The notes below the pieces were generated by a model. That model saw only the letters and a program-made list of their open reading frames with translations. It searched no databases and had not been told where the DNA came from. The translations under genes and the position numbers were made by a program. From positions 17,407-81,406 of the forward strand of contig DVJP01000030.1 of NCBI GenBank assembly GCA_018716725.1: a stretch of DNA of 64,000 nucleotides, in the 5' to 3' direction. Shown piece after piece: positions 12,551-58,589 of the stretch. Source of the stretch: Candidatus Merdivicinus excrementipullorum (GTDB taxonomy: Bacteria > Bacillota > Clostridia > Oscillospirales > Ruminococcaceae). Position 1 is the first letter of the stretch; each line of letters begins with the position of its first letter.

Positions 12551-12626
12551 CTGGGTGTGGCGCAGATGGTAGCGCGCTACCTTGGGGTGGTAGAGGCCGC
12601 TGGTTCAAATCCAGTCACTCAGACCA
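12551..12626 (+). tRNA. tRNA-Pro (anticodon GGG), CCA encoded
   Basis: Hand-folded cloverleaf: acceptor CTGGGTG/CACTCAG with a C1:G72 pair, D arm GCGC..GCGC, anticodon stem CTACC/GGTAG with loop TTGGGGT, T arm GCTGG-TTCAAAT-CCAGT, then A73-CCA. Confidence 0.9.
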
Positions 12627-12755
12627 GGCGGCGAATCGCCGCAGATAAACGCGCACTCACGTTTCGTGGGTGCGTTTTGTTTTTATCCCGCGAAGGGACA
12701 AGGATAAATTCGGTGGATGTACGGCCTGGAGCAGAACGCGCTCCGGGTCTTTTAC
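12623..12755 (+). repeat. tRNA 3'-flank direct repeat, copy 1 (includes terminator)
   Basis: About 130 nt, near-identical to 12812-12940; starts within the tRNA ACCA end. Confidence 0.85.
12651..12685 (+). terminator. rho-independent terminator after tRNA-Pro
   Basis: Stem CGCACTCAC/GTGGGTGCG followed by TTTTGTTTTT. Confidence 0.75.
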
Positions 12756-12811
12756 TTTGTTCTGCGTGAGTGTCCCGCGCTGATAAGGGGTCTCTTTTAT
12801 GAGGCCCCGCA

Positions 12812-12940
12812 CCAGGCGGCGAATCGCCGCAGATAAACGCGCACTCACGTTTCGTGGGTGCGTTTTGTTTTTATCCCGCCAAGGGACAAGGATAAGTTCA
12901 GTGAATGTATCCTGGAGCAGAACGCGCTTTAGGTCTTTTC
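12812..12940 (+). repeat. tRNA 3'-flank direct repeat, copy 2 (second copy of the terminator at 12840-12874)
   Basis: Starts with ACCAGGCGGCGAATCGCCGCAGATAAACGCGCACTCACG. It shows only a few substitutions and a short indel relative to copy 1. Confidence 0.85.
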
Positions 12941-34179: not shown

Positions 34180-34189
34180 GCAAGTGTAG

Positions 34190-34270
34190 TCTTCCGTGCG
34201 ACTGACGGGTTTGTGGAGTCCACCACATGGGAACACGGAAATGTAGATTTTTGCCGACCGTCTGGGCAGC
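34190..34270 (+). promoter_or_regulatory. ZTP (pfl-motif) riboswitch aptamer
   Basis: P1 is TTCCGTG/CACGGAA. The CGACTGACGG core, the GTGGAGTCCAC hairpin and the 3' CCGACCGTCTGGGCA sub-domain are present. The pseudoknot GACGG:CCGTC carries a compensated G-C to A-U change relative to the consensus as I recall it. Confidence 0.75.
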
Positions 34271-34299
34271 CTTGGAAGCAGGGCTGCCCTTTTTGTTTT
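34264..34299 (+). terminator. riboswitch expression-platform terminator
   Basis: GGGCAGCC/GGCTGCCC stem followed by TTTTTGTTTT. The 5' arm overlaps the conserved CUGGGCA. Confidence 0.7.
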
Positions 34300-34339
34300 G
34301 CAAAGGGCAGCCCCCGGGATTCAGAAAGGATGGTTTGTC

Positions 34340-36571
34340 ATGAATTTTGAGCAGTGGAACGGGTTTCAGAGCGGCAATTGGCAGGACGCTGTGGACGTCC
34401 GGGATTTTATTCAGAAAAACTACACCCCCTACGACGGGGACGGCTCCTTCCTGGCGGGAGCCACGGAGCGGACGGAACGGTTAATGACCAAGCTCCGGCG
34501 TTTGCAGCAGCTGGAAAAGGAATTCGGCGGCGTTTTGGACATTGACACCGAAACCGTTTCCTCCCTGACCAGCTACGCCCCCGGCTACTTAGACAAGGAC
34601 GACGAGATCATCGTGGGCTTGCAGACCCGGCGGCCTTTGCAGCGGGGGGTCAACCCCTTCGGCGGCATCCGCATGGCCCGGGCCGCCTGCGAGGCCTACG
34701 GCTACCACCTTTCCGACAAGATCGAACAGGAATTCCAGTACCGCACCACCCACAACGACGGCGTTTTCCGGGTTTACACCGATGAAATGCGCAAAGCCCG
34801 CCATATGGGGATCCTCACCGGCCTGCCGGACGCTTACGGCCGGGGCCGCATTATCGGCGACTACCGCCGGGTGGCCCTGTACGGCGTGGATGTGCTCATT
34901 GCCGAAAAGAAAAAGGACAAAGCCAAAATCGGGGAAGGGGTCATGGATACCGACACCATCCGCCTGTCCGAGGAATTGTTCCAGCAGATTAACTTCCTGG
35001 GCAAATTAAAGGAAATGGCCGCCATGTACGGCTGCGATATTTCAAAGCCCGCTTCTAACGCCAGAGAAGCCGTCCAGTGGCTGTACTTCGCCTACCTGGC
35101 CGCCAATAAGGAGCAGAACGGCGCGGCCATGTCCTTAGGGCGCACCAGCACCTTCCTTGACATTTTCATCCAGCGGGATATGGAGCGGGGGCTTCTCACC
35201 GAGGAAGGCGCCCAGGAACTGATGGACCAGTTTGTCATGAAGCTGCGGATGGCCCGTCACCTGCGGACCCCGGAATATAACGAGCTCTTCGGCGGCGACC
35301 CCATGTGGATCACTGAAAGCGTCGGCGGCGTCGGCGAGGACGGCCGCTCCATGGTCACCAAAAACTCCTTCCGGATCCTCAACACCCTTTACAACTTGGG
35401 GCCTGCGCCGGAGCCGAACCTGACCATCCTCTGGTCGGAAAAGCTGCCCAAGCCCTTTAAGGATTTCTGCGCGAAACTCTCCATTGACACCGACTCCATC
35501 CAGTACGAAAACGACGACCTGATGCGCCCCACCTACGGGGACGACTACGGCATCGCCTGCTGCGTTTCCGCCATGAAGATCGGCAAGCAGATGCAGTTCT
35601 TCGGGGCCCGGTGCAACCTGCCCAAACTCCTGCTTTTGGCCTTAAACGGCGGCCACGACCAGCTTTCCGGCACCGAAGTCGGCCCTCAGATGGAGGTTTA
35701 CCCCGACGAGTACCTGGATTACGATAAGGTTATGGAGCGTTTGGAAACCTACCGGGCGTGGCTGTGCAAGCTCTACGTCAACACCATGAACGTCATCCAT
35801 TATATGCATGACAAATACGCCTACGAAAAAATCCAGATGGCTCTCCACGACACCGACGTCCACCGGTTCATGGCCTTTGGCGTGGCTGGCCTTTCCGTCA
35901 TCGCCGACTCCTTAAGCGCCATCAAGTACGCCAAGGTGAAGGCCATCAAGGACGAGGACGGCTATATCTGCGATTTTGAAACCACCGGAGATTTCCCCAA
36001 ATACGGCAACGACGACGACCGGGTGGACAGCATCGCCAAGGAAATGCTGGAAAAGGTTTCCGCCGAGCTGAAAAAGAACCCAACCTACCGGAACGCCGAG
36101 CACACCCTTTCGGTGCTGACCATCACCTCCAACGTGGTGTACGGCAAAAAGACCGGCTCCACCCCCGACGGCCGCAAGAAGGGCGAACCCTTCGCCCCCG
36201 GCGCAAACCCCATGCACAACCGGGAAACTAACGGCGCGCTGGCTTCTTTAAACTCTGTGGCCAAAATGCCCTACGACAAGTGCCGGGACGGCATTTCCAA
36301 CACCTTCTCCATTACCCCGGATGCTCTGGGCCGGGCCGATTCCGACCGGGTGGACAACCTGGTGCTGGTGCTGGACGGCTACTTTAAGCAGATGGCCCAT
36401 CACTTGAACGTCAACGTTATGAACCGCCAGCAGCTGATTGACGCCTACAATGAGCCGGAGAAATACCCGAACCTGACCATCCGGGTGTCCGGCTATGCCG
36501 TCAACTTCTGCAAACTCTCTCGGGAGCAGCAGAAAGAGGTCATTTCCCGCACTTTCCACGAATCCATGTAA
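34340..36571 (+). CDS. pflB: formate C-acetyltransferase (pyruvate formate-lyase)
   Basis: Active-site CCVS and the C-terminal glycyl-radical motif RVSGYAV. Confidence 0.95.
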
Positions 36572-36576
36572 TGGCG

Positions 36577-37036
36577 AGCGGATGTAGAAATCCGCCTCTA
36601 CAAATTGAAATGTAACGAGAGAGAAATATGAAAAGTTTTACTCGATTTTTTTCAAAAAATCGCAAGGGTGAAGGGGACAGAGTCCCATTCTCGCACTCCG
36701 CAGAGTGCGAAATCTCCTATGATACAAAAGATCAGGAGGGGAGGCCAAATAGTCCAGTGGACTGTTTGGCCGTGGGGAACCCTATCAAGGGGTTCCCCAA
36801 AATAAATCGGCAAATCTACCGTGCAAAACAATTCACTGGATTGTTTTGCAGAGAATACTCCGGATACGGTCGGACGGCTTACGCCGTTTGACAAATCCCA
36901 GGCGTGGATTTTTCAAACTTTTTTCTGCGCTTTTTATCTTGGAGATTTCGTTTTCTGCGGAAAACGACCGAGGGCGCTGCCCTCTGGACACCCGCCACCT
37001 TTTGAAAAAGGTGGACGAAAACTTTTGATTTTTCTC
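36577..37036 (+). repeat. hairpin-mosaic intergenic element, copy B (begins with an inverted REP-like unit)
   Basis: 36631-36715 is homologous to copy A, and 36818-37036 is homologous to 57412-57627. Many perfect hairpins. Confidence 0.8.
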
Positions 37037-37132
37037 TCAGGCAATGTTGTGCGCCAGTCAGGGAAACTGCCGTGAATAAATTTATGGCGGTTCCCGCAAA
37101 ACCGCCCATCTTCGCGAAAACAGGAGGGTTCT

Positions 37133-37843
37133 ATGACCGGAAAAATCCATTCCATCCAATCCCTGGGCACTGTGGACGGCCCCGGCGTCCGCACTGTGGT
37201 TTTTATGCAGGGATGCCCTCTCCGGTGCGGCTACTGCCACAACCCGGATACCTGGGACCCAAATGCCGGGGAAACCGTGGACACAGCGGAGGTTTTCGCC
37301 AAAATCAAGCGGTTCCGGCCTTATTTCGGGCCGGAAGGGGGCGTGACGGTTTCCGGCGGGGAAGCCCTGCTCCAGCCGGATTTTGTCCGGGAACTTTTTG
37401 CTCTCTGTAAAAATGAGAGTATTCATACCGCCTTGGATACCAGTGGCTGCCTCTGGAATGAGCAGGTGGAAAGCCTTCTGGACGTCACGGATTTGGCGCT
37501 GCTGGACATTAAGATGACCACCGACGCCGATTACCGGGAATACGTCGGCTGTTCCCTGGAAAAGCCCCTGTTTTTCCTCAGTAAACTGGAAGAAAAAGGC
37601 ATTCCCGCCTGGATCCGCCATGTGGTGGTGCCGGGGCTTACAGACGCCCCGGAGAATATCCGGCGGCTGCGGGATTTGCTGAAGGGCTATTCCTATATCC
37701 AAAAGGTGGAATTTTTGCCCTTCCATAAAATCTGCGTACCAAAATATGAGAAAATGGGGATCCCTTTCCCCTTTGACCGGTTTCCGGCGGCCAGCAAAGA
37801 CCAGGCGGAACAGGCTTTCAGGGAATATCAGAAAGGCTCTTAA
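37133..37843 (+). CDS. pflA: pyruvate formate-lyase activating enzyme (radical SAM)
   Basis: CPLRCGYCHN cluster motif. AGGAGGG RBS. Confidence 0.9.
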   Translation: MTGKIHSIQSLGTVDGPGVRTVVFMQGCPLRCGYCHNPDTWDPNAGETVDTAEVFAKIKRFRPYFGPEGGVTVSGGEALLQPDFVRELFALCKNESIHTALDTSGCLWNEQVESLLDVTDLALLDIKMTTDADYREYVGCSLEKPLFFLSKLEEKGIPAWIRHVVVPGLTDAPENIRRLRDLLKGYSYIQKVEFLPFHKICVPKYEKMGIPFPFDRFPAASKDQAEQAFREYQKGS

Positions 37844-52061: not shown

Positions 52062-52207
52062 ACGGCCGCGGCGAATTGCCGCGGGGCCTCCCCATTTGAA
52101 CGCAAAAGCGGGAATAACTTTTACAGCGGCGCAACTTGTTTGCGCCAGCCGAAGCTTAACGCGGGGTACAATGGCCGCGTCGTCTTATCAGCGGCGATTC
52201 GCCGCTA
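52062..52207 (+). repeat. copy of the ~120-bp hairpin unit also found in tandem at 54.7-54.95 kb
   Basis: Shares GGCGCAACTTGTTTGCGCCAGCCGAAGCTTAACGCGGGGTACAA with 54742-54785. Runs up to the HD gene stop codon. Confidence 0.75.
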
Positions 52208-52867
52208 CATCATGATTTGGCCGTTAATGACAATGCCGAACCGCAGGTCAAAGAAGGCCGCGGCCTTCCGGCACAAAAGCATGCGGGTCATGAAAATCTC
52301 AAAATATTCCAGGATCGGGCAGATGCTGGAATCGATTTCCAGTTCCAGGGTAATGGTTTTCGCCTCCTTGTCCAGCTTTAGGGCGCTGCGTTCTACGGCA
52401 TAGTTTACCCGGTCGTGGATGTCGAAGGCAATAGTGTCTTTGCTGCGGACCCGGCTGCGGCGCACGTCGGATTTGTCCGCCAAAATCAGGGCCGCCGCCA
52501 GCTCGTTGACCGGGTAGGCCGTTTCCTCGTCGTGGTTGCCGATGGCTGTAATCACCGCCGCTGTTTCCTCTGGGGGCATCCCCAGCTTGTCCAAAAGCCG
52601 GAAGGCCATGATCGCGCCGCTTTGGGCATGGTCCACCCGATTTACTACGTTGCCGATATCGTGGAGATACCCGGCAATCCGGGCAAGCTCCGCCGTCCGG
52701 GCCGGATACCCCAGCTCTGCCAGGAGATCAGCCGCCTGTTTGGCGCATTTGGCCACATGGGCGAAGCTGTGCTCCGTAAATCCCAGGGCTTCCAGGGAAG
52801 CGTCGGCCTGACGGATATAGGTATTGATTTCCTCACTGTGACGCAGGAGGTCGTAAGTGATTTCCAT
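52205..52867 (-). CDS. HD-domain phosphohydrolase
   Basis: HD motifs (GYLHDIGN, GNHDEE). True start MEITYDLL follows an AAGGAGTGG RBS. The longer tracked ORF is an artefact. Confidence 0.8.
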   Translation of the reverse strand: MEITYDLLRHSEEINTYIRQADASLEALGFTEHSFAHVAKCAKQAADLLAELGYPARTAELARIAGYLHDIGNVVNRVDHAQSGAIMAFRLLDKLGMPPEETAAVITAIGNHDEETAYPVNELAAALILADKSDVRRSRVRSKDTIAFDIHDRVNYAVERSALKLDKEAKTITLELEIDSSICPILEYFEIFMTRMLLCRKAAAFFDLRFGIVINGQIMM

Positions 52868-53110
52868 AAATCCACTCCTTTCATACTGCATACTGCCAGT
52901 ATAACACATTTTTTGTCTGGAAAAAACCAATTTGCGGAAAACCATAAATAAAGTTCGAAAAATCCAATGATTTTGATAGCAATTTCCAGTGAGATGTGGT
53001 ATACTGAACCTAAATACGGGAGTATTCCCGCAGCCTGGCTTATTCTCTTCCATGGGATCTGCGGAAGGGTACGGCTGGGAAATAGACGAATAGAACGGAG
53101 TGAAATCCCA

Positions 53111-54094
53111 ATGACACACAAGGAACGGTTTATCAAAACCCTGAAAGGCGAGAAAATCGGCGGCCAGGTGCCAACCTTCGAGCTGGTATTTTTCCTGACC
53201 ATGGAAGCCTTCGGCAAGGTGCATCCCTCCCACCGGGCGTATTACCAGTGGAACCAGATGAGCCAGAACGAACGGAACCTCCACATGAACGAAATGGCGG
53301 ATCTGTACATTGAAACCGCAAAACGGTACGGCCACAGCGCTATTTTCCTGCATCCCAATCCCGGCGATTTTGAAAACGCTCTTTGGCTTTTGCAGCTGAT
53401 CCGGGAAAAAAGCGGCGATGAATATTACCTGATGATGCACGGCGACCCCACTTGGGCTATCCCGGACGGGGACAGCATGTTCGAGTTCTCCGCCAGAATG
53501 TACGAGGAGCCGGAAAAACTCAACGAAGAGTCTGAGCGCCGCCTGGAAAGCGCCCTGGAATTTGCCCGGAAGCTGGACGACAACGGCCATCTGCTGGACG
53601 GCTTTACCCTTTGCTCCGATTACTGCTTCAATACCAATCCCTTCTTCAGCCCCGACAAATTTGACGAGCTGATTGTGCCCTACTTGAAGCGTGTCATTGA
53701 CGAATACCGGAAAATGGGCTACTACACTATCAAGCACACCGACGGAAACATTATGCCCATCGCCAAACAGATGGCAGACTGCGGCCCCGATGCGTTCCAT
53801 TCTCTGGATCCTCAGGGCGGCGTCAGCATCCCCGAGCTGCGCAAGCTCATCGGCGATAAGATCACCCTGGTGGGCAACGTCAACTGCGGCCTTTTGCAGA
53901 CCGGCACTGACGAGGAATGCCGGGAGGATGTAAAACGTTCCCTGCGGGAAGGTATGGAGCGCGGCTATGGCTACATTTTCTCCACTTCTAACTGCGCTTA
54001 CACCGGCATGCCGTTAGAGCGTTATGAAATGATGATGGATATTTGGAAAGAATACGGCAACTACGACCGTTATCCCAACGGCAAAGGCATCTAA
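53111..54094 (+). CDS. URO-D superfamily protein (third type; lacks the HxC motif)
   Basis: MTHKERFIKTLKGE start. KHTDGN, SLDP and GNVNCG motifs typical of URO-D family proteins. Confidence 0.75.
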   Translation: MTHKERFIKTLKGEKIGGQVPTFELVFFLTMEAFGKVHPSHRAYYQWNQMSQNERNLHMNEMADLYIETAKRYGHSAIFLHPNPGDFENALWLLQLIREKSGDEYYLMMHGDPTWAIPDGDSMFEFSARMYEEPEKLNEESERRLESALEFARKLDDNGHLLDGFTLCSDYCFNTNPFFSPDKFDELIVPYLKRVIDEYRKMGYYTIKHTDGNIMPIAKQMADCGPDAFHSLDPQGGVSIPELRKLIGDKITLVGNVNCGLLQTGTDEECREDVKRSLREGMERGYGYIFSTSNCAYTGMPLERYEMMMDIWKEYGNYDRYPNGKGI

Positions 54095-54657: not shown

Positions 54658-54699
54658 AATGCGTTGTTCGCTTGATAGTACAAAAATGAAGGGGCGGGA

Positions 54700-54950
54700 C
54701 TTCCCCGTTTTAACCGTAGAAGCGGGGAAATCTTTCACAGGGGCGCAACTTGTTTGCGCCAGCCGAAGCCTAACGCGGGGTACAACAGCCGCGGCGCGTC
54801 GTCAAGCTAACTTGACGACAAGCGGCGGGGCTTCCCCGTTTTAACCGTAGAAGCGGGGAAATCTTTTCCAGAGGCGTGACTTGTTCACGCCAATCGAAGC
54901 TTGTTGCGCGGCAGAACGGCCGCGTCGACTTAGCAGCGGGGCTTCCCCGC
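54700..54950 (+). repeat. tandem array (two units plus a partial third) of a ~110-130-bp multi-hairpin unit
   Basis: CTTCCCCGTTTTAACCGTAGAAGCGGGGAAATCTTT recurs at 54700 and 54831, with a partial copy at 54942. The internal hairpin is GGCGCAA-cttgt-TTGCGCC in one unit and GGCGTGA-cttgt-TCACGCC in the other. Confidence 0.8.
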
Positions 54951-57306: not shown

Positions 57307-57336
57307 TGCCGCCGGGGCAGCTTACTCCGGCGGCGT
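57307..57336. repeat. 30-bp direct repeat, copy 1 (terminator hairpin preceded by an A-run)
   Basis: TGCCGCCGGGGCAGCTTACTCCGGCGGCGT, identical to 57660-57689. Confidence 0.95.
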
Positions 57337-57659
57337 AATTTGGCTAACCAGTATCATTTGTGCAGCAAGGCGCACAAAGAGTTTTTCGATTTGCCGCAAG
57401 AATCACCACTTACCGTGCCAAACAATTCACTGGATTGTTTGGCAAAGAAGGATTCGGATGCGGTCGGACGGCTGTGCCGTTCGATACACCCCTTGCGGGG
57501 GTTTATCGAGCTGTTCCTGCGCTTTATGTCTTGGAGATTTCGTTTCCTGCGGGAAACGAGGAAGGGACTCTGTCCCCTCCACCCCTGCAAGCTTTTGAAA
57601 AAGCTTGACCAAAACTTTTATTTTATCTTTTGCAGTTATGTTTATTAATCATTATTCTG
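57337..57659 (+). repeat. hairpin-mosaic intergenic element, copy C (323 bp)
   Basis: 57412-57627 is homologous to 36818-37036 with stem covariation. Bracketed by the 30-bp direct repeat. Confidence 0.85.
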
Positions 57660-57694
57660 TGCCGCCGGGGCAGCTTACTCCGGCGGCGTTTTTA
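57660..57694. terminator. 30-bp direct repeat, copy 2, followed by a T-run (functional half of the original bidirectional terminator)
   Basis: GCCGCCGG-loop-CCGGCGGC followed by TTTTT. Confidence 0.8.
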
Positions 57695-58453: not shown

Positions 58454-58469
58454 CGGAATTTGTCTGTTA

Positions 58470-58556
58470 CAAATCTTCCTTCGGTGGGATTATCCACACA
58501 GGTTCGAGGGTTGAAGCGCGCTTCTCTCAGCCGGGTTTTCACCGGCACCCCTGATT
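58470..58556 (-). promoter_or_regulatory. TPP (THI-box) riboswitch aptamer
   Basis: The minus strand reads GGGGTGCCGGTGAAAACCCGGCTGAGAGAAGCGCGCTTCAACCCTCGAACCTGTGTGGATAATCCCACCGAAGGAAG. The CTGAGA and ACCTG..GGATAAT..CC elements are conserved. Confidence 0.85.
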
Positions 58557-58589
58557 CGACATTTATTTTAACATAAATTTTACATTTCG

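Follow-up and report, generated by a model that had tools for sequence, protein, structure and literature searches.

The pflB-pflA spacer of Candidatus Merdivicinus excrementipullorum is probably a decayed copy of a non-coding mobile element that inserts at terminator hairpins

The window analysed here, a stretch of 64,000 nt of DNA from Candidatus Merdivicinus excrementipullorum, an Oscillospiraceae species, contains three copies (A, B and C) of a hairpin-rich repeat. The hairpin-filled spacer between pflB and pflA (copy B) is, with a probability of roughly 80%, a decayed and rearranged copy of a non-coding MITE, found widely among gut Oscillospiraceae, that goes in at the feet of terminator hairpins and duplicates the hairpin in full. 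These MITEs are unusual in that the duplication is as large as a hairpin, and they carry a conserved palindromic module as cargo; the family does not represent a new class of RNA. No earlier description of it was found in our partial coverage of the literature; a 2024 review of MITEs mentions neither Clostridia nor hairpin targets.

Copies in the window

A first-pass annotation, made from the letters of the window, had described a family of modular multi-hairpin repeats whose copies differ by paired, stem-preserving changes. Such a family is real. All five hairpin pairs quoted there were found in place, and both block alignments hold: positions 36817-37035 align with 57411-57628 at 78% identity, and positions 36624-36714 align with 2190-2298 at 67%. 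However, a sensitive self-comparison showed that 36619-36717 is the reverse complement of 36941-37038, the latter being matched also by 57533-57630. The supposed 5' module is therefore the inverted 3' module, and the five covarying hairpins are only three (H1 to H3), which form one unit of about 90 nt, here called the T module. The second and third of the quoted pairs represent the same two hairpins as the fourth and fifth, read from the other strand. It also follows that copy B is a single large imperfect palindrome, and that the copies are not all co-oriented.

Matches to a covariance model place four T modules in the window, two per strand, and all three copies contain at least one of them. 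On the plus strand lie the T module of copy A (2193-2303, 55.1 bits) and the left one of copy B (36627-36719, 88.5 bits, also supported by alignment, with H1, H2 and H3); on the minus strand lie the right, inverted one of copy B (36939-37030, 89.1 bits) and that of copy C (57531-57623, 91.5 bits). The claim that all three copies stand on the plus strand is thus contradicted by T modules in both orientations. The pattern TCGnnnnCCGCAGnnnnCGAAATC would be expected 0.07 times in the window and is present four times.

Spread and covariation of the T module

One genome per species was scanned for an exact pattern in which only the H3 loop and the base of its stem were fixed, and at least 119 loci were returned, nearly all of them from Oscillospiraceae or other Clostridia. 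Although the pattern covered H3 alone, the whole T module is present in at least about 110 of these loci, and a profile gave 159 matches in 116 of 122 loci. The hosts comprise Oscillospiraceae, Ruminococcus, Butyricicoccus pullicaecorum DSM 23266, Huintestinicola, Merdivicinus, and other Clostridia MAGs. Several copies are found per MAG, and many stand at the end of a contig, which is what a dispersed repeat should show; once the family is recognised, many of the contig breaks in Oscillospiraceae MAGs, and many of their oddly long intergenic spacers, are explained. The module is well conserved across genera, and in dozens of genera it adjoins unrelated genes.

Within its approximately 90 nt the T module has three perfect hairpins, whose stems vary while the loops and linkers are conserved, and its consensus reads aAAAGTTTtcG.TCaagccTTTTcAAAaggcttGC.GGggTC[H2 stem, loop ~GCAGAG]GTCGC[nnnn]CCGCAG[nnnn]GCGAAATCTCC. 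The four free pairs of H3 are fully complementary in 123 of 137 public-genome instances, which between them use 36 tetramers; in shuffles the number of such instances averaged 11.6 and never exceeded 22. When 117 copies were aligned to the covariance model, 95.8% of the cells paired, compared with 75.9% in shuffled alignments and 33-46% when the partners are slid. Cells changed on both sides number 412 against 99 after shuffling, and none of 500 shuffles reaches the observed value. RNAalifold counted up to 32 two-sided changes per pair among 52 copies, with one-sided changes at about 0-1 in H1 and H3. The covariation that had been noted between copies of the window was thus borne out on family-wide alignments, where it is very strong and far above shuffles.

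Element ends and target-site duplications

Several copies of the T module are flanked by long exact direct repeats of a hairpin, and these led to the real ends of the element and to a terminal inverted repeat (TIR). The 16-mer core of the TIR, CAGnnTGTCGAwAAAG, occurs 127 times at no more than three mismatches, against 11 times in shuffled sequence. Complete copies have the full TIR of about 45 bp, CAGnnTGTCGAwAAAG-N18-19-TGCAC(A), at either end. They measure 236-349 bp and consist of the left TIR, the T module, a variable middle that often contains a further hairpin (X), and the right TIR; the T module is placed 30-75 nt in from the left TIR and is invariably directed inward. The family had been thought to lack terminal inverted repeats, whereas its complete members have both these TIRs and long target-site duplications.

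Another 120 loci came from metagenomes scanned for the TIR alone. The elements found in this way are T-containing ones of 331-334 bp, abundant T-less ones of 460-491 bp, and likewise T-less minis of about 160 bp (146-172 bp), so that the family elements span 146-491 bp; they are without an ORF and have many dispersed copies. The 460-491-bp T-less subfamily was seen in human-gut metagenome contigs (L135, L145, L151, L154, L178, L189, L201, L223 and others), often with further TIR-like matches about 495 bp away on either side, a spacing that suggests tandem or adjacent T-less copies separated by hairpins.

Duplications of 23-41 bp, lying flush with both CAG ends and forming hairpins with 9-14-bp stems, bound 12 of 29 distinct TIR-delimited elements; in 16 of the 29 a duplication is absent. 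With copy C of the window and locus L023 added to these 12, there are 14 independent duplications, each of which is a complete palindrome with an 8-16-bp stem plus 0-3 nt per side, usually one and one. A T-tract either follows the second hairpin copy or is contained within the duplication, and the element ends lie 0-3 nt outside both feet of a terminator-like palindrome. The size of the target hairpin sets the length of the duplication, and such a relation marks a joining that is staggered, symmetric and guided by structure, at the two feet of a hairpin or cruciform. For the study of target recognition this is unusually clean natural evidence for choice by structure, a 23-41-bp duplication following hairpin size within 0-3 nt. 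The same kind of hairpin duplication is present in T-less relatives (L072, L176, L178, L151 and others), and the T module is therefore dispensable for movement. The 35-bp hairpin duplication of L023 (2565-2599 and 2836-2870) has identical arms and differing loops, TTT in one copy and GAA in the other; the relation of these loops is nearer inverted than direct.

These ends bear directly on the possibility that the repeats are of the REP/BIME or REPIN kind and that RAYT or an IS200/IS605-type HUH transposase moves them in the form of single-stranded DNA hairpins. Hairpins that are perfect at the DNA level, conserved loops and a mosaic, modular build as in BIMEs would all suit such elements, and the family resembles REP, BIME and REPIN sequences in its mosaic extragenic palindrome arrays, its compensatory stem changes and its position downstream of genes. 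However, REPs are single imperfect palindromes of 20-40 nt, mobilised by RAYT (HUH) and devoid of TIRs and duplications, whereas here the unit is TIR-bounded and 236-349 bp long. To our knowledge, HUH single-strand transposition (IS200/IS605) yields neither TIRs nor duplications of the kind that bound these elements; moreover, the junctions are without a short conserved target tetranucleotide, and an HUH gene was not seen in the loci examined. Movement by an HUH enzyme is thus very improbable. The earlier suggestion of a single-stranded DNA hairpin element analogous to BIMEs came nearer the truth than that of a structured RNA, but the unit is a transposon-type MITE.

DNA palindromes and RNA helices

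The modules follow gene ends at a distance of 20-100 nt, on the downstream side, and would be transcribed along with these genes. In tandem-gene contexts, as judged from crude ORF calls, 18 are co-oriented and 8 opposite. The copy B spacer, folded as RNA, forms one long foldback of -244 kcal/mol, far better than shuffles (z = -10.4). Together with the very strong covariation in three helices, these observations would fit a structured RNA, one of the two kinds of element proposed in the first-pass annotation. In that case the T module and its partners would act on host mRNA, for instance by stabilising it from the 3' UTR, by providing a processing site or as an sRNA, and would have spread since the RNA is useful. 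RNA helices as variable as these normally pass through G:U and tolerate it, on the transcribed strand only, and many such pairs would be expected among about 2100. Nevertheless, a census of the stem pairs gave 2069 Watson-Crick, 9 G:T and 10 A:C, with no asymmetry between the strands, and H1 is a near-perfect palindrome with a centre of only 1-3 nt. As wobble is no better tolerated than mismatch, as the strands are alike and as H1 is so nearly palindromic, we infer that the palindromes of the T module are preserved as DNA and not as RNA helices.

Other observations also disagree with a useful RNA. T modules occur in both orientations within the window, the 18:8 split is at most a weak bias and not significant (two-sided p ~0.08), and the TIRs and hairpin duplications show spread by transposition. 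A comparison with Rfam, which had been recommended for the family, gave no match: none for the repeats at gathering score in the window, where matches with E up to 10 were of chance level only, and nothing relevant in the pfl spacer of a relative or in another repeat of the window at gathering and at permissive thresholds. We consider a structured RNA acting on host mRNA unlikely. For those who search genomes for RNA motifs, the lesson is that striking "covariation" can come from DNA palindromes of mobile elements, and that G:U should be weighed against A:C first.

Copies C and A

Copy C is a complete, old insertion. End-to-end alignment with TIR-delimited elements of other genomes delimits it as a 323-bp MITE at 57337-57659 on the minus strand. 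It lies between two copies of a 30-bp target-site duplication, an exact direct repeat (30/30) absent from the first-pass annotation. The first duplication copy, at 57307-57336, is a whole terminator hairpin (TGCCGCCGGGGCAGCTTACTCCGGCGGCGT); the second, at 57660-57689, is followed by a T-tract. The duplicated hairpin has a 9-bp stem with overhangs of 1 and 2 nt, and the minus-strand 5' CAG of the element is flush with it. The TIRs have diverged, with 5 mismatches in the 16-mer. The terminator duplicated by copy C belongs to the gene of the YuaJ thiamine transporter, upstream of which we observed a TPP riboswitch (58459-58562, minus strand).

Copy A is an element fragment. It comprises a T module standing alone and carrying an additional palindrome of 20 nt (2240-2259); it is located in the cbiG-cbiL spacer, and recognisable TIRs and a duplication are both absent. 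The site is polymorphic: strains with an identical CbiL protein, among them L130, lack copy A and have another spacer of 140 bp with a different small palindromic element, and the strains thus differ by replacement, without a clean single-copy empty site. This second small palindromic element, with the ends TGTAGGGG(A/C)G...C(G/C)CCCCTACA, is found at 1349-1500 of L130 and also in L260, L254 and L032, and stands in the cbiG-cbiL spacer of some strains in place of copy A. Related TGTAGGGGCG motifs are present in the pfl spacers of relatives.

Copy B and the pfl spacer

The gene pflB (34298-36571), whose product has PFL-like and Gly_radical domains according to Pfam, is preceded by a ZTP (pfl-motif) riboswitch at 34188-34274 on the plus strand. 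It is separated from pflA (37133-37843) by 561 bp, which, in agreement with the first reading of this region, hold no credible CDS. The PflA protein encoded here shows 100% identity to its counterpart in Candidatus Merdivicinus excrementipullorum. Most of this spacer is copy B (36578-37083), a composite palindromic element of two MITE left halves arranged head to head, as seen from the self reverse-complement match over 36619-37038. Its left edge was set by alignment to the TIR of a complete element (L160), and its right edge is the point where likeness to the spacer of relatives resumes. The TIRs of copy B have decayed and are not recognisable, and a target-site duplication is absent.

In the left half of copy B, the T module is followed by the X hairpin GGCCAAATAGTCCAgTGGACTGTTTGGCC (36743-36771), a conserved partner of T in many genomes; the T plus X unit of about 170 nt is kept in L058, L041, L087, L101 and others. 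After X comes the hairpin TGGGGAACCC-tatcaag-GGGTTCCCCA (36773-36799), and the same G-rich hairpin stands after X at other loci. The right half contains the X' hairpin TGCAAAACAATTCAcTGGATTGTTTTGCA (36822-36850), homologous to 57416-57444 in copy C, and the inverted T module. Copy B consists of left halves of different subfamilies, one of the L101/L058 type (T plus X) and the other of the copy C type, fused around palindromic X hairpins. Convergent pairs of T modules 470-760 bp apart recur at other loci (L018, L028, L076).

The same spacer is 217 bp long in Merdivicinus intestinigallinarum, 219 bp in M. faecavium and 447 bp in a third relative (L260). A sequence of about 217 bp is conserved among the three, and only its last ~45 nt are left in the window. 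This retained ancestral tail, at 37084-37132 on the plus strand, includes a GGCGGTT...AACCGCC hairpin and the ribosome-binding site of pflA, and nothing else in the spacer aligns with the three relatives. Copy B is therefore a replacement and not a clean insertion; by this comparison of spacers, it replaced about 170 bp of an ancestral spacer of 217 bp. The premise that pflB and pflA are normally tightly linked does not apply to this genus, where a conserved spacer of 217-219 bp was already in place; in the species of the window it was rewritten by mobile DNA. No sigma-70-like promoter able to serve pflA was found on the plus strand of copy B. The spacer of the relatives (L254, 2984-3200; L257, 2982-3200; L260; e.g. 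CACCGCTGGAACGGCGCGACAAGCTGCGCCGTCATGGGGAG), conserved across species and without an Rfam match, may be an unrecognised regulatory element of pflA that was lost in the window species.

Persistence of the copies could be taken to mean that the repeats are immobile, being either debris of local duplication and recombination or a conserved regulatory spacer that is palindromic by chance. Copies B and C are indeed fixed and identical in all same-species contigs read (22 for copy B and 23 for copy C), and copy B is without a duplication. On the other hand, copy A is polymorphic, the T module stands beside unrelated genes in dozens of genera, and the 14 independent hairpin duplications contradict immobility, which we regard as extremely improbable. 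A mobile MITE thus remains the preferred reading for all three copies.

Relation to known systems and possible mechanism

The IS1182 family, for which ISfinder gives direct repeats of 0-60 bp, is the best and closest precedent for this MITE by virtue of its hairpin targeting. TIRs of the family taken from annotated plasmids start with GAGnCTG (IS1272, GAGTCTGGGACATAAA; Kurthia, GAGGCTGGGACA; ISKpn6, GAGCCTGCG), and the MITE starts with CAGTCTGTCGAAAAAG. This likeness (a common xAGnCTG and 9/16 identity to IS1272, with a different first base) is suggestive but not conclusive. IS1272 (IS1182 family) and TnSha1, both from Staphylococcus, target hairpins, mostly terminators, without a primary-sequence consensus (PMC4923244, PMC5678879); palindrome targeting by certain IS1182-family members is credited in these two papers to Siguier et al. 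2015. The MITE resembles IS1272 in that the hairpin targets are chosen by structure and the core TIRs have about 16 bp in both. However, IS1272 deletes all or part of its target hairpin and makes no duplication, whereas the MITE duplicates the whole hairpin. The MITE differs further in being non-coding, in that a cognate transposase was not found in the loci searched, and in having its hosts among Clostridia and not Bacilli.

We propose that a DDE-type transposase, supplied in trans, would recognise the target hairpin or cruciform and join the 3' ends of the element symmetrically at both feet, and that gap repair would then copy the hairpin. Such joining would correspond to pathway b of the model drawn for IS1272, in which the entire stem-loop is predicted to be duplicated if joining takes place at the 5' feet (PMC5678879, PMC4923244). 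The hairpin and T-tract would stay downstream, so that termination of the neighbouring gene would survive; the element would then ride in the 3' UTR of its neighbour, making terminators a safe landing site. Regenerating a terminator on insertion would let selfish DNA spread in compact genomes with termination intact. The T palindromes could be structure-specific protein-binding or cruciform sites, or could be kept perfect by hairpin-templated repair. A more specific proposal is that the T module is a structure-specific DNA (or DNA plus RNA) device, whose three cruciform-forming palindromes with fixed loops would mimic the target and recruit or regulate a putative transposase that reads terminator hairpins, the whole being a new structure-guided system and no derivative of the IS1182 family; this we regard as doubtful.

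Neither an autonomous element with these TIRs nor an IS1182-type transposase was detected in the fetched loci (about 1.6 Mb), in three viral-collection scans or in the window, and the assignment of the transposase to a type hence rests on analogy. That no transposase lies near the copies had been noted before, and agrees with a Pfam scan of ten ORFs of the window and with a negative tblastn search with the IS1272 transposase, which was negative against all fetched DNA as well. The three viral-collection scans, made with TIR patterns, gave nothing, or chance coding matches, and no elements of 0.9-4.5 kb flanked by hairpin direct repeats were found. ORFs between weak TIR pairs (L057, L064, L191, L165, L198) proved to be housekeeping or unknown genes, and all-against-all clustering of the ORFs of the fetched loci gave only ABC-transporter paralogues as recurrent proteins. 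Locus L210 contains at 1225-2755 an IS3-type ORF (HTH_21 plus rve), which was rejected as a parent; it interrupts a split T module, the MITE itself having been struck there by another IS. Three other origins were discarded: IS630/Tc1, considered since the TIRs start with CAG, as the flanks are not TA; the terminator-targeting class C group II introns, as an RT and intron structure are absent and duplications are present; and captured terminators as a source of the internal hairpins, with which the conserved loops and linkers do not fit.

The family may also be compared with other small repeats of bacteria. The pneumococcal BOX, RUP and SPRITE repeats are likewise small, modular, multi-hairpin intergenic repeats of Bacillota, which often cluster and nest, and are co-transcribed with their neighbours. 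However, BOX is built of boxA, boxB and boxC modules and is without hairpin-sized duplications, RUP duplicates TA (IS630-like), and the MITE has no sequence similarity to any of the three and no Rfam match. The Correia elements of Neisseria and the enterobacterial ERIC sequences share with it a non-coding, TIR-bounded unit of 100-350 bp that is high-copy, intergenic and able to form long hairpins once transcribed, but their duplications are short and fixed (TA for Correia), unlike the hairpin-sized ones described here. Among classic bacterial MITEs such as Correia and ERIC, we know of none reported with a whole terminator hairpin as its duplication.

Other repeats in the window

Two further sets of repeats were observed in the window. 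A GC-rich, hairpin-rich unit of about 110-130 nt (GCGGGGCTTCCCCGTTTTAACCGTAGAAGCGGGG...GGCGCAACTTGTTTGCGCC...) has three plus-strand copies, 76-81% identical, at 52075-52182, 54689-54796 and 54820-54927. They flank an HD-domain gene (52205-53800, minus strand), are without an Rfam match, and could represent a further family of repeats or an undescribed cis-element. A 99-nt direct repeat (12623-12721 and 12811-12909, 96% identical and 188 bp apart), with terminator-like hairpins inside, begins directly after tRNA-Pro(GGG) at 12551-12626.
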